34,084 bases of DNA from Psammoneis japonica. Taxonomy: Eukaryota. Below are positions 3,561-20,075 of the stretch, piece by piece. Each line of letters begins with the position of its first letter. The first letter of the stretch is position 1. The stretch spans positions 1-34,084 of the forward strand of contig QPGO01000180.1 of NCBI GenBank assembly GCA_008632985.1. The letters run 5' to 3'. The notes beneath the pieces were generated by a model. It saw nothing but the letters and a program-made list of their open reading frames with translations, was not told the DNA's origin and made no database searches. A program made the translations under genes and the position numbers.

Positions 3561-4331
3561 TCATCTAGCAGACAAAAGTCGCGACTGAACATTCTGCCTT
3601 TGTTCTTTAGTAGAAATTGCTTCCTGTGTACTCCGAGTACAAATCTTACACGTTGGACTCTTTCTAGATGCTCCCTTTTCTGACCATTGCAAACCTTCAA
3701 TGAGATCAGCAACGCAACGATGGAAATGAATCTCATCTCCGAGTTCATTTGAGATGCCACAAAGCCCGCGGAAGGATTTCACAAAACTCTTTTTATATCT
3801 CCCGTACTCAAAGAATGACTTTGACATTTCTAGTTTTTGCATTGGTTTTTTGTTCACAAAGTCGTGGAATTCGGTGTGAGACAAAATGTCAGCCATGTCT
3901 TGCAACAGTCCCACTGTACACATGGTCAGTGTTTTTCTTGCTTCAGTAAAGTAATCTTCTACCTCTTTATTGTCTTTCTCGGCAGCCTCATTTGCCATGT
4001 GATGAATGTGACGGTCGGCGAGCCTGAGCTTGGTGCGGACCAAGGACAACCTGGCGCCATCTTCCATGTGTCCTTTCGCCTCACGAAGATGAAAGCCGAC
4101 TGTGCGTTTGAAATTTACACCAAATTGATTCACTTTGTCGAGCCAGGCATCATTGAATGGTTCACTCTCGATGCTGCACAGAACACTGTCAAGACAATCC
4201 ATGAAGTTGCACGCGGGCATGTCAATCTTTTCAGAGGATGGAGCGGCATTGCCAGACAGTTTTCTTTGTTTTTTTTCTACAGCAGAGGCCGCCGCTCCCA
4301 AAGAAAGAGACAACAAGCACAAATGCTTCAT
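3561..4331 (-). CDS. Hypothetical secreted protein (256 aa)
   Basis: Uninterrupted ORF with signal-peptide-like start MKHLCLLSLSLGAAASA. No family recognised. Confidence 0.6.
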   Translation of the reverse strand: MKHLCLLSLSLGAAASAVEKKQRKLSGNAAPSSEKIDMPACNFMDCLDSVLCSIESEPFNDAWLDKVNQFGVNFKRTVGFHLREAKGHMEDGARLSLVRTKLRLADRHIHHMANEAAEKDNKEVEDYFTEARKTLTMCTVGLLQDMADILSHTEFHDFVNKKPMQKLEMSKSFFEYGRYKKSFVKSFRGLCGISNELGDEIHFHRCVADLIEGLQWSEKGASRKSPTCKICTRSTQEAISTKEQRQNVQSRLLSAR

Positions 4332-4429
4332 GCTGTTTCGTCAAAAGAGGCAACCTCTGGAGTGGGCTGTCTTTGATCAGATGCGGCACTCGGCAAAAGT
4401 GAGAACCACGGTGCTGATGACACCCACGA

Positions 4430-4793
4430 CTGATCCTCGAACTCGAAGCAAACCGACACAGGCCGGCAACGAAGTTACGTTGATTTCTGCACAAGCAAAA
4501 AAGGATTCGCGCGGCATTTGACCAAGACGAATCTTTTTCCTTTCACTGCTTTCACGCATCAATTTGCCGGAGACCTGAAATGTTTCAAATTGGATGCTTC
4601 TCCATTTTGTTTTTGTATCTGATCCTCGAACTCAAAGCGAACCGACACAGTGACGAAGTCATGTTGATTTCCACAGCAAAAAAGGATTTGCGCGGCATTT
4701 GACCAAGACGAGTCTTTTTCCTTTCGCCGCTTTCATGCACTTGTTTGCCTGAGACCTGGAACAGTTCAACTTAAAAATGCTTCTCCATTTTGT
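4430..4793. repeat. Degenerate tandem duplication of about 180 bp (copies begin at 4430 and 4619)
   Basis: Both copies start CTGATCCTCGAACTC, share GCGCGGCATTTGACCAAGACG and end ATGCTTCTCCATTTTGT. Confidence 0.9.
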
Positions 4794-5883
4794 CACTTTT
4801 GTGTGCTGCTGAGCTGCCAGCATGAGAAAAGCATGCTTGTCAATCAAGCAAAAAGCTTTGTCCACTCAAGCATCTACTGGCACTGCTCCACTTGATGCGC
4901 AGCGCTCCCGGACCCCGGACCTGCCCAAAAGAAGAATTTCGCCATGCTCAAGCACAGAGGGCCTGGGCAAAAAGATGAACAATCAAGCTGACTCCAATGT
5001 TGTGTTGATCAGTGCATGATGCAGTGTGCCAAATGACATCTGCTCTGTTGCTGCAGATGACTCATCCCCAGCAGCGCCTCTCTTGCACCACATGCTGCTG
5101 CGCGTGTGAGCAGTGCGACGAACTGCAGGACGAGGATGAGCACGAGTCAAAAATTTGACTGCAGCATGGCAGCAAGAATTGGGCATGTTGATGATGCATT
5201 TTTTGATGTGCTTCAAGTGACTGTGTTGCCAAAAAGCAGAAAAAAATCTCTCTTGTTGATGCGCAACAAACAAAAAAAGTGCAGTGCGCCACTTGACTGA
5301 AAACGAAAATGAGGGTGGGCGTTGAACCAACAAGTCAACGTTGCCAAAGGGAATCCTCTGAGGCTTCCTGCGCTGCTCGCTGCACTTGTCCTGGTTGCCA
5401 TGGTCGTCCTGATTTGCCCAGAAGCTCTCAACAAACTTCAAGGTTGGTGAGATCGGGCAAAATGAGCGAGAGCGCTCATTTTTGCAAGGTGTCGCCAGAC
5501 TCGCTGCATCAGGATCCGAGACATCTTCTCTTCAATGGCTCTGCTTCCAGGTTTCTCACATTCCTGCTCATTCTAGATGCTCCAACAGTGGGAGCAAAAC
5601 CATCTGTCAATCACAGAGTGCAGCTGTCTGTCCTTTTCCCACAAGCACATCAGCAGCGTCGTTTCTCCCACCTCCTCTTTTTTCTTGTCAGCTTCACCAC
5701 AATGCACAGAGCAACAACAGCACATGCAAAACATTTCATTCTCCATGACAACCTTTTCCAAACTGAATCACAACATCAGTGGATGGGCCGGTGCTGGAGC
5801 AGCAGCCGAAGGAGGAGGTTGAGCAAAAGCTGGAGCCGATCAATTTGAATTGAGATTTCGAAATTTTTGGTTTCCCTCCAACA
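4620..5883. other. TpA-depleted, TG/CA-rich island; probable hypermutated repeat relic of unknown origin
   Basis: Only three TA seen by eye (about 4772, 4875, 5574) in about 1.26 kb. Overlapping Cys/His-rich, Tyr-free ORFs in many frames. Confidence 0.75.
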
Positions 5884-7618: not shown

Positions 7619-9205
7619 TTAGGCGGTAAGAAGCTGCCAAGCCTTCTTCAGCTTGCTGCCTGCGGACGAGAGGCCCCTTTTCTGGTCATAGTCGGGAACA
7701 AGGAGTTGCGATGCATCCGTAACAGGTTTGAAGCCCTCCGGGAAAACATCGCTTTGGGCAAGAACGCTGCACTCGGTCGGACTGGCACAATAGACTGCCT
7801 GAACAATTTCCTGAAATGCCACCCATCGGTTCTCTTCTGCTGACTTGTCGGCGGCAATCACCATGATGAGAGCCACGAGACCATCTTCTCCGGTGCATGG
7901 GACAGGCGTATCGTTAACAAGCGATTCACAAAAGGCCACAGTCTCTGTGACATAGGCCTCATTGTATCGAGAGAGGAAGAAGTCATACGGCATATCGGCG
8001 TTTCCAGTGAAATCTGTGGGCCATCGCGGGACGAAGCAGAATAGAAATGAGTAACACTACAGGCAACGACACAGTTGTAGGGCAGCAAAACTGTGACTTA
8101 CCGCTCTTGAACACTTTGGCGGTATTTGGGTAAACATTGTCAGTTTGGATCATTCCTTTGGTTCCAAGTACCTCGGCACGCTGGTCGTAGCCATATGAAG
8201 ACTGGCGGCACACATCGACCATTGCTGTCACGCCGTCCGGATAACGAACAACGCATGATGCCGTATCATATTTCTCAGACCCATCCAAAACTTCGATAGA
8301 CTTGTCAATATGAGTGGATCCAACAGCAAGGATCTCAACGGGATCAGTTCCCGCAAGGAATCGAGACATATCCTGCAAAGAGAAAAAATCCATTGAGTGA
8401 TATGAGTCCCACAAAAGTATGAAACATGGACATAAAGCGAGTGATTCCAAACCTACCAAATCGTGTACAGCCATGTCTGCAAATATGCCTCCGCCGCCTT
8501 TGACATATTCAAACGGAGGAGGTGCGGGATCACGGGAGCACAACTTAATCATGATGTTTTTTCCAACCTCATCATGTTCGATGGCGGTTTTGACACGTTG
8601 AAAGTTCTGATCAAAGCGTCTCTGCAAACCAATCATAAGTTTGACACCAGCTTCGTTACAGGCGTTAATGGCCTCAACAGTTTCAGGCAAGTCTGTAGCG
8701 ATTGGCTTTTCACAAAAGACGTGCTTCCCATTTTCAGCACAAGCCTTGATTTGATCGGCGTGGTATTGAGACGGAGAGCAAATCCAAACAGCGTCCACTT
8801 CCTCATCGGTAATGACATCCATTGCGTCATCACTGAACCTGGGAACACCAAAATCAGCAGCGGCTGGAAAGAAAAACAAAGAGTGTGGGTGAGGTTCTGG
8901 CTTGTCTTCGTCCCCTACTTCGCATATCGGGGTTGACAATACATCAGACGCAACACACCTTTCTCGGCCTTCGAAATTGTGGGATTAGAGACAATTACGG
9001 GAGTGACGTTTGGAGCTTTTGTAATGGCCCCAAGATGCACCAAACCGATTCGACCACATCCAATAACGCCGACCTTGATGTTCTTTTCGGCGGAAGATGC
9101 CTCAACATTCATTTTGAGAGCTGATCGTCGGATACCCGCATTTGTGAGGGTAAAAGCCTCAACTCCAGGAGCGAGAATCGCGAGGAAAAGAGCAAATACC
9201 CTCAT
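7619..9205 (-). CDS. Myo-inositol 2-dehydrogenase-like Gfo/Idh/MocA oxidoreductase, copy 1, probably plastid-targeted
   Basis: Rossmann VGVIGCGRIG, HVFCEKP, QRRFD, SRDP, DMAVHDLD and YGYDQRAEV motifs. Four exons with GT-AG introns 8864-8958, 8373-8456 and 8014-8101. Signal peptide ending VEA-F, resembling the diatom ASAFAP motif. Confidence 0.92.
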
Positions 9206-11419
9206 TTTTGACTGCTTCGCAATCTCCTCCGATTGGCAATTCCTTCGACAAGACGTGTCAACAGCCGTCGGGGGCTTCTTTGTCTCGCTTCGGTGTGTCT
9301 CAAAATCTTGTGGGAGTTGGGAGTTCAAAAAACGCGCACGTCAGTGGTTTCGAGCACCCCTGAGCGGGGAATCTGGATACGAGAACTGCGGGGTTCGTTG
9401 ATTGAGTGAGTCGTATCGTCGTCTATGTTTCGAAAACACATTCATCATTCATCGCCACAATGAACATTTCATACCCGCATTGACATCCACTCGGCGGTTG
9501 TCAATTTTTTTCGATGTCCTCCCCTTGAATGGCTTGGAGAAACATCCGAATGGTGGCTCTGCCCACCTTGGCCACTCTTTGTTCTTTGTCAGCCACATTT
9601 GATGGACAAAATCGGCTGCTGTGCCAACTTTGTAGTTCACTCATTTGAGAGAGGGCGAGAGAGAGTGTGTGTGTTGAGCTGACAAAGTCAATGTCGCCAA
9701 AAGGGAGTCCTGTGAGGCAGGTTTGCTGTGCTGCTTGCCACACTTGCCCTGGTTGCTGTGGCAGCTGCAGCTTGCCTGGAAGCCCTCAATGAACTTTGAC
9801 TTTGCAGCATGACAGGCACCCACTGATGTCACAGTGCAGTTTGTGTGAGCCAGATGATTCGCTCCAAAGAGTGAGACAAAAAAAAGGTTGGCAAGATCTC
9901 TGGCAGGTGCACATTCACACGTGCAAGGTCACCAGATCCACCACATCAGGAGTCAAAGTGCCCTCTCTTCAACAGCTCCGGGGTTCTGACATCTCCTGCT
10001 CATTCCAGATGCTCCAACACACTTCTGCCACTCTTGTTGATGTTCAGAGTGCTTGCTCTTCACACACCAGAGTGGCCCCAACAGGGATCTCTGCAACAAA
10101 TCTGCTGGCCCAATCTTCTTGGTCATCGCTGTCATCATCTTCCACTTTGGCGCACTGCCAGTCAGCACGTCACTTTTCGTCAGCAAAATTCAACATCTCA
10201 TTGAGCGCATCATCTGTGACATCTCGTGTGCACTCCACAAACTTGACAATGCAACCACAATGACTCCACTCCACTGAGCTCATCACATGCTGAAGGTCAA
10301 GGAGCAATCAATCCATGACCCAGCCATTGACCACTTTGGGGCCCAACACAAAGAATCCTGTTTTCTGACAAGTCCATTTTGTTCCGGGTCTTGCATTGTT
10401 GATGTTGGGACCAAAAAACAGCACCGACTTCTGTGCATCAAAGAAAAGTCCATTCTTGTCTCACACCATCCCATGATGGACCTTGCCATGCTCACAGACT
10501 CTCAGACTCTCAGACTGAGCTTCACGAGTGGCCCACAAACCCCCTTGTCATCCATGCCATGTGCTGGACAGCTGACTGTTGACACATTCAGAAGCACAAG
10601 AGCATCTTGTCTGTCCAGCACAAGCTGAAGATTCCTGTTCCTGGATCCAGCAATGCATTGGTCCCAAGAGTGTTTTTCTTGGACCTGCTGTGCTCTTTGT
10701 GATTTCAACAACATGCCTTGCCCTGCAACTTGACGTCAAAGCCAGTCATCTGCCAGAGTCCACTGGCCTTGTGCACATTCATTCCATGCATCTTGGTGTC
10801 ATTCATTGCACTCCTGGCATCATGCAAGGAGAACATTGGTGCAGTGGTGGACACACACCTCAATTGATTTGGCGTCCAATGTCTCACAGTGTCATCATGC
10901 AACTCTCTCATGGCACCGTGTCTTTGCTTCCACAGCTCTGCCCACATTGGCTTGAGCAAAATTGCTGGTGTCTTTTCACAAGTGTGGGTTGATCATTGGT
11001 GATGTCCCATTGCTTGCAAGCCATTGCATGAGTTCTTCTTTTGCATGCACAAAATGCACTGTTGCCTCCCTGCCACATGTTCTGGGACAATGTCCGCTTC
11101 ACTCCTCTTTCTTTTGCTCATTGTTTTGGTTGCATGTTGCTCTGTGGAACAATGAATCCAGACCATCAAACCACACCCAACAATTGCTTGGCTGCTCTGA
11201 TGTGATTGGTTCAAAAAATGATGCAACACCCAAAGTTGCAGTGGTGTTGTCACTCACAACTGTCACTTGCTGTCACAAACCATGTGCACATTCTTTGAGG
11301 CTCTTCACTCACCTCATGTTTGCACTGAACATTGAACTTTCAAGGATCTTTCACTCACTTCTTGCATCAGAATTCTTGTCTGACATCACAAAAATCATGA
11401 TCCGCTCTGGACGTGCTTT

Positions 11420-14400
11420 TGTCCAACTGCCCACAAAGGCTTGTTGGAACTTTTGAAACTTCTTGCCCTGTGATGGCTTTGTCATGAAGTCTCAGTGTTG
11501 TCAGCAGGACAACACTGTGCTTGTGAGCTGTCCTTCTTCTCAATTTGAGCAGCAACAAAGAAAAAATGCAGAATGTTGAGTGCTTGTGACTGCTTGCCGG
11601 CACTCTTGCACCCATCAGCTTCCAGCAGGATGGTGCTCTTGTTGTCCTGGCATGGGATGTTCTTGTCAATTGGGTGCTTTTGGTGCTCCATGAATGACTT
11701 TTGTCCATGGCATCATGGTCACAGCATCATCAACTCCAACAAGCTCAGCTTCCATGCTGCTTCAGGTGTTGAGCTTCTGGTGCTTCAAAGCAGCCTGCAC
11801 TTCTCCATTGCTCGTTGTCACAACACCTTCAGCGTGGCTCTTGAAATTGAAATGTGCTGCAAATGATGTGCCCGCATGCCACTTGACAACTTGGAGGTCC
11901 TCATGCTTCATGATTGATGCAGCAACTTTGTTTCTTGTCTGGTTCAAACACTTGAGACAATGGACTGGCTTCCCCCCAATCTTGTTGGCAGGAGATCTTG
12001 CCCACATGCATGATGTGGTGACAGTGGGGCGCACATCCATTTGGCCTCTCTTGGACACACAAGTGTTCCCTTGGCCACTGACATCAAAGGTTTGAGCCTT
12101 CTCATCTGACAATCTTGTTGCAGCGTGCATGCAGACAAAAGGTTGTTTTTGTCATGACATTTGTGACTTTTAAAGGCTGCAACACATCACCGTGATGCAT
12201 CAACTCTTGCAAGCAGCTGGGTGTTGCATGATGCATGGGGAGGAGTGCAACATCCAGCTGCACGTGAGAGTCAATGCATCATGGCGACATGTTGCAGCCT
12301 TTAAAAGTCACAAAGGTCGTGACAAAAACAACCTTTTGTCTGCATGCATGCTGCATTGTTGTCAGGTGTCAAATGTCTTCTCTCTCTGCATGGTGTCATG
12401 GCAAAATCTGCACTCTTTAACTTTTCCAGAACAAGTTGATTGATCATCTTGCAAACATGGTCTGCCATGTTGACTTTCACTTTGCCCTTTTGGCTGAAGT
12501 TCAGGGTCATGCCAAGATGGTCATGTCTCCTCCTTTGTGCAGCAATGACTTCACCATGATGGCTTCCACACATCTCATTTAGCCAGCCCAAAAATTTGTC
12601 ATTTGCTTTTGGGTTCTTGTGGTTTGATGACAACAGGTCATCAACATGGAATTAAATCATGTGCTGCTTGCCATTGACAGTTTGATTGGCAATGCACAGA
12701 TCATGTGGGTTGAATTTAGACCCTGTCTTCTCCAAGTCTTGGTGCAACCAAACATGCCACAGCGAAGTCGTGTGACCAACATGCCACAGATGGCTCTGAT
12801 GACTTTAATGCAAAGGACTCTCTTGCCTTTCTCTGGGGCCAAACAAGGTCTGTGCAGGTTGGCATCAATGCTTTCTGGCATGTCCACTGGCACTCCTGTG
12901 ATCTTCATTGCCAGGAACATGAGCACTCGTTTCACATTGCAGCCTTTGTGGGCATGAACAATTTCAAATTGCCGTCATTTACATCCCCACAAGGCATGCA
13001 GCAAGGCTGGCTGACTTGTCTTTGTCCGGCCATTCTCAGGTCACTTTGCCACCACAAATCATTCACCTTTTTGTGCAATTGTTTTAATTCTTGGTGCTGA
13101 CACACTGGTGCAAAGCACACTCAGTCATGCAACTGTTTGTTGATTGCTTTCTCTGAGGCATCACACCCCTTCTGCCAAATGCTTCAAGGCCTTCATGGAG
13201 CAAATGTTGCTGGCAAAACATGCACCCTCTCCACTTTGGAGTTGGCCATCAATCTCACACAGCAAGTGTGCGGCCATTGCTGTCTCTGCTTCATGTTCAA
13301 TGTCATCCTCTGGATTGGGACTTGTGTTGGGCTTGTGTTGCTCCTTCACCACTTTTCCGGCATCTGCCACTCCTTCAAATTGAGCTTTCTTCTCTTGGTG
13401 TTTGTGTGACGCCATGTTGAAGGATGCCCTGAGTGTTTTGCCACTTCTTGCAGCTCTGCTTGACACAGCTGTTGTTTCTTCCTCCAGTCATTCACCTTCC
13501 CATCTTGTTTTTTCCTGGGATTCTTTGTCCTCTTTGGACTCTTCACTCTCACAGTGTTCATCTTCTGGGTCATCGTTGACCTCTTGCTCTTCTTGAGCTT
13601 TGCATTGTCAATCAGGGCTGGTCCTTTTGTCAGCCATTGTGTGTTGTCTGCTTCATCACATTCATCATCTGAGAGACAGGTTCATCTTGACAGTCTTCAT
13701 CTTCTGACTCAGTTGCACAGCTTGCACCACATTTGCTTTCTTTGCTTTTGTCATCCCTGTTGTGGTTGCTTTTGGTTTTGTTGTTGTCCACTCCTGCAGT
13801 CCAATCAGCATTGCCTAAATTGTCTCCACATTTTCCCACAAATTTGAACTCCTGCTTGATGCCTTGTCCAATGGTCACATCCTTGACAGCTGCAACATGC
13901 TTGTTGGTCAAGGAAATCTCATGGAGGTGCACTTGCAGGGATTCAATGACTTGTTGCCCATGTGCACCAGGTTCATGGCATGGTGTCTGCGCCTTTTGGC
14001 AAACCAAAATGTGGTCACAGGCAGATGCTGCCAACACCATGTGCTTCTGCAGCATTTGTTTTCTCACTCTTGATGTGGGAAATGACAAGTTCCCCAAACT
14101 CAAGCTGAAAGTGTTTGTTGCAGTCAAGGTCACTTGACAGTGTGTGTGGACTGCGTTGGAAATCCCTTCCTTTTGCAGGCACACATTAAACATGGCAGTG
14201 TTCTTTATCTTGGCTTGCTCGCACATCAGCTTGGGTGTCATCTTTTGTGGCACATGATTGCAGTGGCTCTGGTTTGCTCCCTGATGGTTTGAATGTTCTG
14301 CTCAACCTCCAGAATGTGGTCCTTGGCATTTGCAGATGTGAGTTCTAGAGTCATGCCATCCACAACTTGGAGCCACACTTGACAAAGTCAATCTTGAACA

Positions 14401-16280
14401 GGGCCACATTGTGCTGTCAGAGAATCATGTCCAAGGCTTTGCAAATGTGATCATGCTTCTTGGACCTCAGCATCACACTCAATTGACATTTGATTGTCTT
14501 GTCAACTGCGCGCAGCAACTCAGCACCTCATTCTTCCATGACATCAATGCAGAGGGTCACACCTTCTCTTTGCTTCTCATGAATTTCAGGTGAAATGTCA
14601 ACAATGTCATTCCTCTCACAGGAACAACATGCACACTTGGTCTTGCCTTTCAGTGCATCTGTTGGTGGACCCCAAATGGCTGTCATTCTGTCCACATCTT
14701 CAGGGATGATGGGTGGGTTCTGCACCTGATTGGACTGCAAAAGCAGCTTGAGATCCCTTGCACTGGGCATTCCAGCCTTGCAGTGCAGTCTGAGTGCTTC
14801 CTCATTGCCCACCACTTCTCATTCTTTAGTGCAGCTTTTCACATTCTGTTTCACAGCAGTGACAATTGCTCCTGATGAACTCCTGTGCTTCTTGTCCATC
14901 TTCTTCATGACCTTCTTGTCCTTTGACAGCATGCTCACATGAAACTCATCTTTTTGGAGCTCTTTTGCATGGTTGAGGAATCGCTGGCTTGGTGCAAATG
15001 CATGCAGTCTGATGTCATTGACTTTAAAGACCATGACTTGTTTTCCACAGTCTTCTCATCTGGTGGATGGAGCTCACCTGCTGCCTTGTTGTCATGTGCA
15101 ACATGGTGCTTGCTCTTCACATCTTTTAGACTCAGGATTTTTGCCATCATGCTCTGTGACCCAAGCTTCACATCACTCTGTCCTGGCATTGTGCAGCATT
15201 CATCCAAATCCTTTGTTGGTGGACAGATTGATTTTGATCATTGCTGGTCACACATTGTGCACTGGTTTCCAGCTTGCCGCCATGCTGAGGGCAGAGCCAT
15301 TGTCAAGGATGATCTCATCTGACTTGATGCCCCTGTTGGCTTGGCTCAAACTCATCTGTGACCTTTCATTGGCCTGTTCATCTGCTTGGAACCCATGTCA
15401 AACAAGATTTCTCTTGCTCTTGCCAGAGCTTGCTGATTGACTGGATCTGTGGTGGGTGCCCACACTGATGTTGTGTGGCTGCTCACTGATTCAAACAGTC
15501 TTCATCTTTTTGTGCATGACTGTGTCCCCTGGCAACCGGTTTCCCGCCGATGTCTTCTTGTGCCATCCTTCTGCAGGATCTCATCCCTGTGCTTGCAGTC
15601 TGGGGCTTGTGGTTTGGCACACTCAGGGCATGACCATGGTCTTGTGGGTTCCTGGACTTGTTGTCAGCCCTGTTTCCATTCTTGTTGCTGGGACAATCAT
15701 TGTTCTTTTTGTTGTGATGCTTGCAAGGGTCGTTGTTTTTTAGATCATTCAGTGGCACATCCATTGCCTTCTCAAGGGTCTTCAGATGTGGGTCAATTCC
15801 TGGACCACAATCTCTCACAAGGCTTTGCTTGAGGCTCTTGCAGCATCGGTCATCACTGCTCTCCATGAACAGAGGCATGTGGTCCACCATGTCTCATGTG
15901 CTGGCATCATTTGGCACCTGCTGTGCTGTGCCAATGCTGTTCTTGCACTCCTTGGCATTATCAACAAAGCCATCTGGCATTCTGCTGCCAAGACCATTGC
16001 TTGTGGCATCTTGTTGACTCATAAATCTTGATGGGCAGCCAATCAGTGATTCACCCTCTTGTTGTTGCATGTCCGACATGTGCTTGAGAGACTTGGCAAG
16101 TGTGCAGAATGGATGTTGACCTCTCTCACAGAGTCAAACATTGGTGGCTGGATCAGCTTCAACAGCTTGACAGGGTCATCTCTGAAGCTCTTGCATTTGT
16201 GATCGGCTGGCACTCTTTGACTCATGAGCTTGGTGTGCAGCAATCATCTGGGATCACTGCACACCACCCAGAAAATCCAC
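11420..16280 (-). mobile_element. Degenerate Ty1/copia LTR-retrotransposon internal region (diatom CoDi-like): gag-PR-INT-RT-RNaseH
   Basis: Gag DDPVKLLKLIQ and PHLKTLEKAMDV (about 15700-16275). Protease IILDNGSALS (about 15300). Integrase IWGPPTDALKGKT, VTLCIDVM and DHILEVEQNIQTIRE (about 13900-14830). RT RAICGML, FHVDDLLSS and DHLGMTLNFS (about 12000-13100). RNase H QKLNT*SSMEAELVGVDD, QDNKSTILLE and MTKPSQGKKF (about 11420-11910). Many stops and frameshifts. No LTR pair found. Confidence 0.93.
12119..12355. mobile_element. Foldback/MITE-like element: about 110-bp inverted arms around a 17-bp spacer, inserted in the copia RT
   Basis: The left arm TGCAGCGTGCATGCAGACAAAAGGTTGTTTTTGTC matches the reverse complement of the right arm, which ends ...GACAAAAACAACCTTTTGTCTGCATGCATGCTGCA. 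Flanked by direct repeats TTGT at 12115-12118 and 12356-12359. Confidence 0.85.
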
Positions 16281-17640
16281 AACAATGGCTGGCCTCCCAG
16301 CACAGAAGGAGCAAGCTCAAAGTGAGCAATGGACAAACAAGAGTGACAGAGCATGGCTGCACATGGGTGAGCAACATGCTGGCAAAGTCATGCACACAGA
16401 GCACCAAACAAAAAAATGTCAAGCATGGCACCACCACATGTGTGGCCCACACCAAAGACAAAAGACAAGCGCAGTCAATCAAATTTTCTCTGTGTGCAGG
16501 GTCATCAGAAAACACAATGCCAGCCTTTTTGTTGTGCTGTTTCCAGTGCTGCATCACTGGAACCTGCTTGCCACCCAGCAGGGAGGAGCACAGTCAAAGG
16601 CCAGGGGGAGGCAGCTCAAAGCTGTGGCATTGCACAGACTCCTGGTCTGTGGCAAGAGTGGCGGCACTTTTGGTCTCATCTTGCTCAAGCAGGTTTTGAC
16701 AAGACATGCCAAAACACATGAGCAACGCAACAGAATTTGGGGCATTTTTGCTGATTTGCAGAGAGGAGGTGCAAAGTCTTGCATGTGTCCACCACAGCTG
16801 TGCCAGAAAGAGTTGTCTCTGGGCTTCCAGAGAAGAGCTTCACAAACAAACAGAGTGTTTTTCATGTGACAACTGGGGTTTGGTTGCCCCAATGACTGGA
16901 GAGGCTGACCATCTTTTTGCTGCCCAATGGCACCCACCCACAAGAACAACTCTTGGATTTAGAAAGAAATTGCAAGGGAGTTGCACAAATGAAGACACAC
17001 CTGAAACTGTGCAGCATGCTGCAGCACAAGCATCTGAACCTGCATCACTGCCCCAGGTTTCATTTTTGAAGCACTGAAAAATGTGACATCTTGTGTGACA
17101 GAACAACTTTTTCAACCATGACACTCTTCCAACTTCTTGTCAAACACACAATGTGGTGCAACTCTTTCCCTGTGACAAAGTCAGGGCATGGGCCAGATCT
17201 CTCATGGCTGTGACCTGGCAGCCAGGTGTGCATCAACTCAATGTTTGGCACACAGTGTTGCCAAAGCAAACAAGTCAGCCACATGATGGCTGACTTGCAA
17301 CATTTTGGAGATTGGAACCAAAAGAGGCAGACTTCAGGTGGCCTCTCAGGCCTCAGAGTTGGGGAGACAATGTTAGCCTTGAGTTGTGAATTTCTCGTCT
17401 TTAGAGCACGGCAGGTGTGTGTCTTTCTCTGTTTCCAAATGCTTGGAAAACTACGATATTTCATAAACTCTGTAAGATGTCGTTTGTTTGCTCTACGTAA
17501 TCCAGCATATTATCACGATTCGAGTCCAGGAAATCACCGTTTCCGTCAAATCATTCGTCAATGACTATTGGGCGCCTTTGTACACGAAAATTCCTTAAAC
17601 AAGCCAATCCAACCATTGCTACTTAGTCTCAAACCAACAG

Positions 17641-19235
17641 TTAGGCAGTAAGGAGCTGCCAAGCTTGCATCCACTTATTTCCTGCTGATGAGGTGCTTTT
17701 CCGTTGGTCATAATCGGGAACAAGAAGATCCGATGCATCCGTAACAGGTTTGAAGCCCTCAGGGAAAACATCGCTTTGGGCAAGAGTGCTGCATTCGGTT
17801 GGAGTGGCGCAATAGACTGCTTGTACAATTTCCTGAAAGGTCACCCATCGGTTCTCTGCAGCTGACTTGTCCGCAGCAATCGCCATGATGAGAGCCACGA
17901 GACCATCTTCTCCAGTGCACGGGACAGGCGTGTCGTTCACGAGAGAATCACAAAAGGCAACCGTCTCCATGACATAGGCCTCATTGTATCGAGAGAGGAA
18001 GAAGTCATAAGGCATGTCGGCGTTTCCAGTGAACTCTGTATGTCGATCGTGCTGGTGAGCCAGATGTGACAATGAATAACTCCAATGTCAACCGCAAATT
18101 TGTAGGAAAGCAATTGTGACTTACCGCTCTTGAAAACTTTGGCAGTATTTGGGTAAACATTGTCTGTTTGGATCATTCCTTTGGTTCCAAGTACCTCGGC
18201 ACGTTGGTCGTAGCCATACGAAGATTGGCGGCACACATCAACCATTGCCGTCACGCCGTCCGGGTAACGAACAACGCAGGATGCCGTATCGTATTTCTCG
18301 GACCCTTCCAAGACTTCGATAGACTTATCAATATGAGTGGATCCAACAGCAAAGATCTCAACTGGATCAGTTCCCGCAAGGAATCGAGACATGTCCTACG
18401 AAAACGCCAAATAATCAATTGCTGTGAACCTTAGTCCCAATAGCATAAAAACTTTACAAACAACAAGTGATCAAGACCTACCAAATCGTGAACAGCCATG
18501 TCTGCAAATATGCCTCCGCCACCCTTGACGTACTCAAACGGAGGAGGTGCAGGATCACGGGAGCACAATTTAATCATGATGTTTTTCCCAACTTCGTTAC
18601 CTTCGATGGCAGTTTTGACGCGTCGAAAGTTCTGATCAAAACGTCTCTGCAAACCAATCATTAGTTTGACACCAGCTTCGTTACAGGCGTTAATGGCCTC
18701 AACGGTCTCCGGCAAGTCTGTAGCGATTGGCTTTTCACAAAAAACGTGCTTTCCATGTTCGGCGCAAGCCTTGATTTGATCGGCGTGGTATTGAGACGGA
18801 GAGCAAATCCAAACAGCGTCCACTTCCTCATCGGTAATGACATCCATTGCGTCATCACTGAACCTGGGAACACCAAAATCAGCAGCGGCTGGAAAGAAAA
18901 ACAAAGAGTGTGGGTGAGGTTCTGGCTTGTCTTCTTCCCCTACTTCGCAATCGGGGTTGACAATACATCAGCCGCAACATACCTTTCTCGGCCTTCGAAA
19001 TTGTGGGATTGGAGACAATTACGGGAGTGACGTTTGGAGCTTTTGTAATGGCCCCAAGATGCACCAAACCGATTCGTCCACACCCAATGACGCCGACCTT
19101 GATGTTCTTTTCGGCGGAAGATGCTTCGACATTCATCTTGAGAGCCGATAGTCGGGTCCCGGGACTATTATTTGTGAATGCAAAACCCTCAACTTCAGGA
19201 GCAAGAATCGCGAGAAAAACGGCAGCTATCCTCAT
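17641..19235 (-). CDS. Myo-inositol 2-dehydrogenase-like Gfo/Idh/MocA oxidoreductase, copy 2, probably plastid-targeted
   Basis: Near-identical protein to copy 1 with the same intron positions (18889-18982, 18396-18481, 18036-18124). Signal peptide MRIAAVFLAILAPEVEG-F. Confidence 0.92.
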
Positions 19236-20075
19236 TTTCCGGCTGCGTACAATTTCAACCACTTGTCCTTAGAGTAGAAGCTTGGACAACGAGTTGTGAA
19301 GAAATGAAACAACCGATGACTTCTTCGTCTGCGGACCTTATGTTCGACATACGACACCAGTTTTCCGCGTCGTTGCACGTCGAACAATTCTTCGGGTTCC
19401 ACCCACGCACGTCAGTTCTTTTTGGCGCACCCTTGGCGGTTTTGAAAATTTGACATCACATCATGGACAATTTCTCCACGAAATCCACAGTATCAGATAT
19501 ACATACGGCCCATTCAAATAAAATCACTACTTGTATTTGTATGAGACATCTGTTCGCTGGTCAGACAGTTTCCTGGAATGACGTGGAGTCGGCGGGAACT
19601 TCCTCTTGACATACAGTACATCCTTTTTTTCTTCTTCTCCAGGAGAGCGTTGCCGACATGTTTTGAATGAATTTAGATGCGTCCGTGTCAATTGCAGCAC
19701 CTCGTGTTGTCCGCTAAGCAAACGTCATGCTTGACAGCAATTTACTGTACCTCTTTGTGAGTATTGGTGGTATTTTCTCTCGGTTACTTTGACGCCGCGG
19801 AAACAGGGTCTTCTGCGGGCGGCCTTGCGTGCTCGATTCACTCGATTGGCCATCATCGGTTGACTGAAACTCTCGTGATGAAATACGGCTTTCGATTGAT
19901 ATCCCAAAGATACTCTTGCTGAGCTAGTTTGAGTAGGCGTATTTGTGATGCAAAGTTCCTAGTGTTGTCACAATTGTGGCACAACGCCAAAGTGCACGTG
20001 TTTTACCTTCCCACTACGGTACGAGGAGATTCAAGCGGACAAAGTCCGTGCTCCCATTTCTTGGTAGCAGGTACA

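Follow-up and report, generated by a model that had tools for sequence, protein, structure and literature searches.

Transposons and other repeats can be altered by processes that recognize dinucleotides. Repeat-induced point mutation (RIP) of ascomycete fungi acts on both strands of duplicated DNA, introduces dinucleotide-specific transitions in transposons and repeats only, with fairly sharp borders, and leaves reading frames riddled with residue changes; it changes C to T at CpA or another CpN, converting CpA to TpA, with TA enriched and CA and TG depleted, and creates TAA and TAG stop codons. Methylation-driven CpG decay converts CG to TG or CA on both strands of transposon DNA and leaves neighbouring genes intact, and hyperediting of the ADAR type changes A to G on one strand at the RNA level, ADARs favouring U before the edited A. 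To our knowledge, all transposon hypermutation described so far (RIP, APOBEC/AID, CpG decay) runs from C to T, and ADAR makes its A to G changes in RNA only. Here we analyzed a 34,084-nucleotide stretch of nuclear DNA of the diatom Psammoneis japonica (contig QPGO01000180.1; hereafter the window, at its full length), in which a decayed retrotransposon of the Ty1/copia type lies within an island nearly devoid of TA and CG, between flanks with ordinary genes. A preliminary description of this locus had noticed that conserved tyrosines (Tyr) of copia proteins are read there as cysteine (Cys) or histidine (His), and had concluded that TA was ancestral and was lost after insertion.

Dinucleotide counts along the window delimit two domains:

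9634-17373 (7.74 kb): domain 1, the transposon island, nearly without TA and CG, CA and TG doubled, with sharp borders
4000-5800: domain 2, in which TA is lost and most CG is kept; it holds a second copy (5280-5587) of a repeat unit of domain 1, and a tandem repeat (4430-4802)

Domain 1 contains 20 TA and 56 CG, whereas the flanks would predict 272 (Poisson P 1e-88) and 448 (Poisson P 1e-121), respectively. The corresponding observed-to-expected ratios (o/e) are 0.04 for TA, 0.13 for CG, 2.04 for CA and 1.81 for TG; TC, at 1.12, is undepleted. With the flanks as reference, the joint deficit of TA and CG (83.2 per kb) is close to the joint excess of CA and TG (86.0 per kb), as it is when 79 relatives of the element serve as reference (80.2 versus 85.7 per kb), and therefore one CA or TG accounts for each lost TA or CG. 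The G+C content of 47.8% is unaltered, because TA and CG conversions offset each other. Products are balanced between strands, with 904 CA versus 925 TG, and no strand-specific runs of CA or TG are seen in domain 1 at scales of 100-400 bases (chi2/df 1.1-1.4, P 0.13-0.26). All 20 surviving TA lie within 12171-16960, with none in 9634-12170; T precedes 17 of them (21% in the flanks), 16 stand in a pyrimidine-TA-purine setting, and nearly all are TTA or TAA.

The borders of domain 1 are abrupt. Most of the window, profiled in 1-kb steps, has a TA o/e of 0.46-0.62 and a CG o/e of 0.8-1.26; between approximately 9.6 and 17.4 kb these ratios drop to 0-0.11 and 0.08-0.21, and CA and TG stand at 1.7-2.3. 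On the left, a TA at 9633 is followed by none until 12171, and the repeat unit begins (at 9631) no more than 3 bases from this border. On the right, TA occurs at 16960 and 17374 and then 12 times in 17400-17599 (versus once in 17200-17399), and CG occurs at 16726 and then densely from 17396. Depletion extends past the polyprotein of the element by 1.8 kb and 1.1 kb. These profiles bear on the possibility of passive decay, in which the neutral mutation spectrum of this diatom would favour TA to CA/TG and CG to CA/TG, and an old element would have drifted while selection kept TA and CG in the gene-dense flanks. TA is in fact under-represented across the window, with an o/e of approximately 0.5 in the flanks, and CA and TG are randomly mixed within the island, as from many independent events. 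However, the steepness of the borders argues against passive decay, and intergenic stretches of the flanks keep a TA o/e of approximately 0.5 and a CG o/e of approximately 1.

The island has a minus-strand copia core, whose parts were located by translated searches and profile alignment:

11426-16234, minus strand: decayed Ty1/copia-type polyprotein, gag to RNase H, with frameshifts and TGA stops (tblastn of the full-length relatives P0004, P0009 and P0011 and of the shorter P0002 and P0001)
15639-16234, minus strand: gag-like part (P0004 residues 154-347, joint E 1.4e-8, 23-41% identity)
14018-15010, minus strand: block between gag and reverse transcriptase, the position of the copia integrase (profile alignment 14869-14018, score 117; P0004 residues 598-822 versus 15010-14366, E 5e-16)
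12382-13227, minus strand: reverse transcriptase (RT), RVT_2 type (P0004 residues 1218-1527, E 2e-32; PF07727 in relatives)
12119-12355: foldback insertion in the RT-RNase H linker, 237 bases, with two 110-nt arms that are 87% complementary and a 17-nt loop
11426-12112, minus strand: RNase H part and polyprotein C-terminus (P0002 residues 269-494, three frames, E 1e-41)

Full-length relatives, of 1650-1800 residues, are colinear with the minus strand from 16234 to 11426. Alignments of P0002 and P0004 across the RT-RNase H region reach E values of 1e-32 to 1e-41, and a 116-residue frame (12301-12651) matches proteins that carry PF07727, including proteins of Cylindrotheca closterium (best E 8e-21, 59% identity). 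The lineage is a divergent copia. In its copia-type RT, its gag-to-RNase H polyprotein and its relatives in diatoms the element resembles the diatom copia type known as CoDi, but the copy present here is dead and its long terminal repeats (LTRs) were not detected. Copia elements have the order gag, protease, integrase, RT and RNase H, and the block at 15010-14018, which lies before RT, is a putative integrase by its position. A scan with P0002 of 1.84 billion representatives yielded 150 further relatives (a search for short relatives in the protein collection gave a single, uninformative match), and the window DNA was aligned to profiles of the relatives with frameshifts allowed. The two well-aligned segments, 14869-14018 and 12854-11429, together contain 8 stops and 7 frameshifts. 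With TA nearly absent, TAA and TAG are not available as stops, and two of the five stops that lie outside the foldback insertion align with an arginine (Arg) of the closest relatives.

When 22 single minus-strand fragments were scanned against Pfam, no RT, RNase H or integrase match was obtained at E 0.1. This silence would be in line with a native composition, that is, a family that avoids TA and CG by nature, or with an artefact, that is, base-calling or assembly error at modified bases. It is, however, explained by the weak scores of even the intact relatives, which barely pass for RVT_2 (35-45 bits versus a cut-off of 31.6), and rve is not called by Pfam even in intact relatives. The frameshifts and stops in frame also argue against a native composition, as do the residues that the relatives conserve.

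Consensus columns were defined as those in which at least 50% of the relatives share a residue. The window keeps this residue in 149 of 315 columns, with a very different outcome for Tyr and Arg:

Tyr: 18 columns, none kept; His in 8, Cys in 5, Gln in 2, and Trp, Leu and Phe in 1 each
Arg: 24 columns, 3 kept; Gln in 10, His in 4, Lys in 2, and Glu, Leu, Cys, Ala and Trp in 1 each

At a consensus threshold of 80%, none of 6 Tyr is kept. Tyr loss exceeds that of all other residues (Fisher P 7e-6), and loss of Arg is as strong (Fisher P 8e-5). The absence of Tyr is in itself automatic because TA is almost gone; what is informative is that the relatives carry Tyr at these positions and that it has given way to Cys and His. 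At conserved Tyr columns, 72 of 1416 cells hold Cys or His across 109 relatives, versus 13 of 18 in the window (P 3e-13); over 13 such columns, the median relative retains 77%. An independent recount from the tblastn matches of all relatives, in which a few positions represent one stretch in two frames, again gave 18 Tyr positions with none kept, 8 read as His and 5 as Cys. Thus, the replacement of copia Tyr by Cys and His reported in the preliminary description is borne out, both against the background of other substitutions and against the residues that relatives natively carry. It had quoted nine motifs, seven of which fall in well-aligned columns with Tyr in the relatives, and two of which align weakly or insignificantly:

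IRAICGML in the window, LRALYG in relatives
RVLCIKV in the window, VLYV in relatives
HDHLGMTL in the window, HDYLGMTL in relatives
MADHV in the window, MVDYV in relatives
VKWHA in the window, KWYV in relatives
NIPCQDNKS in the window, NILYQDNKS in relatives
NILHFF in the window, NIRYFF in relatives
KHHVAHDNK in the window, KYRIVYDNK in relatives (weak, E 0.031)
DPHLKT in the window, DQYPKT in relatives (insignificant alone, E 1.2; colinear with the tblastn match)

The sequence FHVDD, which resembles a mutated YVDD box, is native to the family, the relatives also reading FHVDD. A strict target of TAY only was rejected, Tyr to His being found after pyrimidines and purines alike.

For every changed conserved column, the single base changes that restore the consensus residue were listed. 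Of 166 such columns, 60 need more than one step and 106 are single-step; among the latter, 72.8 changes are transitions and 54.5 fall into four TA and CG classes (TA to TG, 10; TA to CA, 15; CG to TG, 7.5; CG to CA, 22). The neighbouring bases, taken as an internal control, point the same way, with T on the left in 10 of 16 A to G changes, A on the right in 15 of 18 T to C changes, G on the right in 7.5 of 9.8 C to T changes and C on the left in 22 of 29 G to A changes. Other substitutions, namely Thr to Met, Val to Ala, Leu to Ser or Pro, and Val to Ile, follow the same logic. Taken with the fate of the Tyr columns and the composition of the relatives' DNA, the 25 of 34 inferred A to G or T to C single-step changes that stand in a TA context indicate that TA was ancestral, as had been proposed. 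The earlier view of a loss of TA in the coding part stands as far as TA is concerned, but was too narrow: CG has been lost likewise, as the Arg columns indicate, and the domain spans 7.7 kb.

The DNA that encodes relatives has an ordinary composition. In 79 metagenome loci, TA o/e ranges from 0.40 to 1.04 (median 0.65, versus 0.04 in the window) and CG o/e from 0.18 to 1.30 (median 0.84, versus 0.13), and a TA o/e below 0.2 was found in only one 1-kb window (L068), a 500-base GC-rich spot. Thus, Tyr and Arg are conserved among the relatives at positions that read Cys and His or Gln and His in the window, and this in DNA with ordinary TA and CG, which is difficult to reconcile with a native avoidance of these dinucleotides. 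Two open copia proteins from the metagenomes with normal Arg depart from the other relatives: of the 13 Tyr columns, 7 read Cys or His in P0024 and 5 in P0097, and P0024, which also has Thr to Ala and Val to Ala changes, keeps 11 of 15 Arg. Both may be partly TA-mutated elements of other organisms, and the residues of P0024 hint at TA loss without CG loss in other elements.

In order to follow the changes within the window itself, we compared repeat copies. We refer to a flip when one copy has CA and the other TG, that is, two adjacent transitions, as would result from independent resolution of one ancestral TA or CG. The left-border repeat unit and the pairs compared are as follows:

9631-10019, plus strand: repeat unit at the left border, with its second copy in domain 2 (transition-tolerant alignment to 5280-5587)
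9631-9799 and 9911-10019 versus 5280-5441 and 5472-5587 (two blocks): 196 identical positions, 59 transitions, 10 flips
12119-12228 versus 12246-12355 (foldback arms): 96 identical positions, 12 transitions and 2 transversions, 3 flips, 5 CG in one arm only
4430-4616 versus 4619-4802 (tandem copies): 156 identical positions, 19 transitions, 2 flips (4 transitions), 7 one-sided CG, 1 one-sided TA
7619-9208 versus 17641-19238 (host gene, control): 1413 identical positions, 94 transitions, 74 transversions, 1 flip

The left-border repeat aligns to its domain 2 copy with a score of 190, versus 38-46 for 10 shuffles, and nine CG of the domain 2 copy are CA or TG in domain 1. In the foldback arms, all but one of the 12 transitions are CA/TG flips or one-arm CG losses; only 3 of the 14 differences lie outside TA or CG sites, and therefore these sites change tens of times faster than the rest. 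Altogether, pairs in depleted DNA show 15 flips per 538 identical-or-transition positions, versus 1 per 1581 in the control, a pair of GFO_IDH_MocA genes that is 12% diverged with a transition:transversion ratio of 94:74. Neither the transition:transversion ratio and single flip of this host pair nor the concentration of foldback differences at TA and CG sites agrees with passive decay.

The foldback insertion is missing in other copies found in the DNA run X1, where 12119 is joined to 12366 or 12391. It is flanked on both sides by a possible TTGT duplication, and in the bin 12072-12638 the summed depth of X1 contigs is approximately 23000, far more than elsewhere in the element. Possibly, the foldback resembles a miniature inverted-repeat transposable element (MITE) and occurs in very many copies.

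Contigs of run X1 match domain 1 at 9753-11486 with 3 differences, at 13213-13805 with none and at 15753-17905 with 11. These accurate contigs, with a word depth of approximately 60 and some of them reaching the unique flanks, give the same depleted sequence, which argues against an artefact of base-calling or assembly; on the side of an artefact counts that X1, the sole DNA run that contains this sequence, may come from the assembly's own sample. We consider it very improbable that native composition or artefact explains the island. Among the X1 differences listed are flips at 4488-89 and 16278-79, on contigs that enter the unique flanks, a third flip at 13984-85 on a short contig that does not reach the flanks, nine sites with CG in one version only, and TA versus CA at 4875. 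That sites still differ between versions of the same locus would also be expected of passive decay. Yet a general neutral bias fits poorly, because TA loss is more complete than CG loss, is separable from it in domain 2, and ends at the island edge. Overall, passive decay appears unlikely.

The same comparisons speak to a further possibility, namely that the element was edited during retrotransposition, its RNA genome or first cDNA strand having been deaminated (ADAR-like A to I, APOBEC-like C to U) before integration. The element is a retrotransposon, ADARs prefer U ahead of the edited A, and differences to the other X1 copies are mostly transitions (248, versus 86 transversions). Such editing would, however, be one-sided, and is unlikely for that reason: it is strand-specific, yet CA and TG are balanced in the island, both products of TA and both products of CG occur among the single-step changes, and there are no strand runs. 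Moreover, independent hits are found between the foldback arms, which other copies lack, between tandem copies, between same-locus versions and, in part, at one ancestral site in two alleles, and depletion continues beyond both ends of the polyprotein to sharp borders. We regard editing before integration as quite unlikely. That TA was lost after insertion, as proposed in the preliminary description, is supported by the flips in repeat pairs and in same-locus X1 contigs, by the left border at the start of the repeat and by the strand balance.

Domain 2 shows that the two losses are distinct. It holds 7 TA versus 63 expected and 71 CG versus 104 expected; TA loss and CG loss amount to 93% and 87% in domain 1, and to 89% and 32% in domain 2. 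TA loss is separable from CG loss, and more complete than CG loss in both domains. The tandem duplication at 4430-4802, with a unit of approximately 185 bases, lies inside domain 2; in the part of this domain to the left of 5280 no protein family could be identified, and an open frame (3561-4340) extends into it.

In light of these results, we interpret 9634-17373 as a dead transposon island with a minus-strand Ty1/copia core, on which two dinucleotide-specific transition processes acted in place, on both strands, while neighbouring genes were spared; we give this interpretation a probability of roughly 0.8. The counts establish the direction of change, its dinucleotide context, its strand symmetry and its confinement to the island, and the repeat and same-locus comparisons show that it arose in place. 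In this interpretation, CG would have been converted to TG or CA, and TA to TG or CA, in double-stranded DNA already in place. In coding sequence, TAY codons for Tyr would become Cys or His codons; CGN codons for Arg would become Gln, His, Cys, Trp or TGA stop codons; xTA codons for Leu and Val would become Pro, Ser or Ala codons; and ACG (Thr) would become Met.

Several points weigh against this interpretation. The evidence comes from one locus, and the ancestral state is drawn from the protein consensus of relatives with only 40-60% identity; 51.5 of the 106 single-step changes and all 60 multi-step changes are left unexplained by the two processes. The seven TA that survive in domain 2 break the sequence pattern of the survivors in domain 1, so that the context of survival differs between the domains. 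No LTR pair was found by blastn self-comparison, by purine/pyrimidine seed diagonals or by transition-tolerant arm alignment (score 36 versus a null of 38-46); the copia copy is truncated, or its ends are unrecognisable, and the island may comprise several elements. Part of the mutation load could stem from an already mutated source copy. The X1 differences listed are 40 of 335, 31 of them from 4097 onward, and the possible shared origin of X1 and the assembly means that the two may not be fully independent. Finally, the peptide patterns used in the metagenome scan contained Tyr and thus were biased towards intact copies and blind to Tyr-less ones, so that the rarity of such loci elsewhere should be read with this bias in mind.

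Compared with the systems described above, the island shares with RIP dinucleotide-specific transitions on both strands, confinement to transposon or repeat DNA with fairly sharp borders, and frames riddled with residue changes. The pattern is one of transposon- or repeat-targeted point mutation, with a dinucleotide outcome opposite to that of RIP: TA is depleted and CA and TG are doubled, and TA loss here cannot create stops. In addition, half of the changes are A:T to G:C, beyond the reach of any cytosine deaminase or methyltransferase, and strand runs are absent here, unlike in RIP. RIP acts on duplicated DNA only. In run X1 the copia family has many copies (982 contigs, with summed depths reaching hundreds), and both strands are affected at our single locus, where duplication is a possible trigger. 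RIP also requires an enzyme of the RID/DNMT4 type and the sexual cycle. Diatoms possess DNMT4 enzymes whose function is not known and which are placed with RID, the fungal RIP factor, in one study (PMC9998398). A DNMT4-type cytosine enzyme cannot account for the TA half of the changes, because this half is A:T to G:C.

The CG half resembles methylation-driven CpG decay, with CG converted to TG or CA in transposon DNA on both strands and neighbouring genes intact; among the 106 single-step changes, 7.5 CG to TG and 22 CG to CA carry this signature. It may result from deamination of 5-methylcytosine in putatively methylated transposon DNA, and such CG loss is what cytosine methylation of transposons would produce. 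Transposons are the methylated fraction in another diatom, Phaeodactylum (PMC9998398). CpG decay covers the CG half only, whereas here the loss of TA is the more complete. ADAR-type hyperediting shares with the TA half the A to G change with T (U) before the edited base, but acts on RNA and on one strand, while at the present locus T to C and A to G at TA number 15 and 10 on the coding strand and the changes arose in place. We know of no ADAR in diatoms.

The TA half could thus reflect a separate process acting on silenced or repeated DNA, with A:T to G:C changes at TpA at least as fast as CpG decay. As candidate chemistries, adenine might be deaminated to hypoxanthine, or thymine might undergo oxidation of the 5-hydroxymethyluracil (5hmU) or 5-formyluracil (5fU) type, followed by mispairing or faulty repair. 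Dinoflagellates, a related protist group, provide a precedent for a DNA modification that is aimed at TpA and linked to transposons: a TET/JBP-type enzyme oxidises thymine to 5hmU and helps silence transposons, with thymine in TA and TC preferentially replaced (PMC11572971). There, however, 5hmU is a mark, with no mutation process reported in that study (PMC11572971); at our locus TC is undepleted, and diatoms are not known to make 5hmU.

We found no description of TA-loss hypermutation of transposons in the full-text literature, in a non-exhaustive search whose coverage largely excluded subscription journals. Since the known systems run from C to T or act in RNA only, a transposon-confined, strand-symmetric loss of TpA suggests that a major group of marine algae has a route of mutagenesis or DNA modification that has yet to be described, and the chances are substantial that the chemistry behind the TA half is of a new kind. 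More tentatively, and at somewhat less than even odds, diatoms, or at least this one, may defend their genome at the DNA level by changing A:T to G:C specifically at the TpA sites of silenced or repeated sequences. The changes would hit both strands and outpace CpG decay, and their chemistry, whether a DNA adenine deaminase or mutagenic thymine oxidation, would be without precedent in eukaryotic chromosomes. If so, such a defence would abolish all Tyr codons and the stops TAA and TAG but never generate a stop, and a natural TpA-specific A:T-to-G:C enzyme acting on DNA would be relevant to base editing.

Copies mutated in this manner would have long open frames, since two of the three stop codons vanish, would lose all Tyr and most Arg, and would be missed by domain searches; therefore, the transposon content of diatoms and its age may be misjudged. 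The signature can readily be scanned for as a near-total lack of TA and CG together with a doubling of CA and TG, the deficit matching the excess. On the two strands of domain 1 there are 36 TAA and TAG versus 445 TGA. TA loss removes TAA and TAG and can never make a stop, and therefore long open frames are found in all six frames; these stop-to-stop frames, of 100-220 codons, are ones in which gene finders could call genes.

The flanks carry the following genes:

Flanks of the window: genes for cyclophilin, Ostalpha/TMEM184, two GFO_IDH_MocA paralogs, MOSC, ankyrin, LCIB-type carbonic anhydrase, and others
7619-9208 and 17641-19238: GFO_IDH_MocA paralogs, in direct orientation, 10.02 kb apart, 88% identical, bracketing the transposon island

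The Ostalpha protein has its top matches spread over many diatom genera, at an identity of only 56-60%. Run X2 is RNA-like, with a spliced contig across a neighbouring gene; it is without cover at 9237-19442, from which we drew no conclusion on expression. In this run, the left GFO_IDH_MocA copy, on the minus strand, is spliced, with three short GT..AG introns of 88, 84 and 95 bases.

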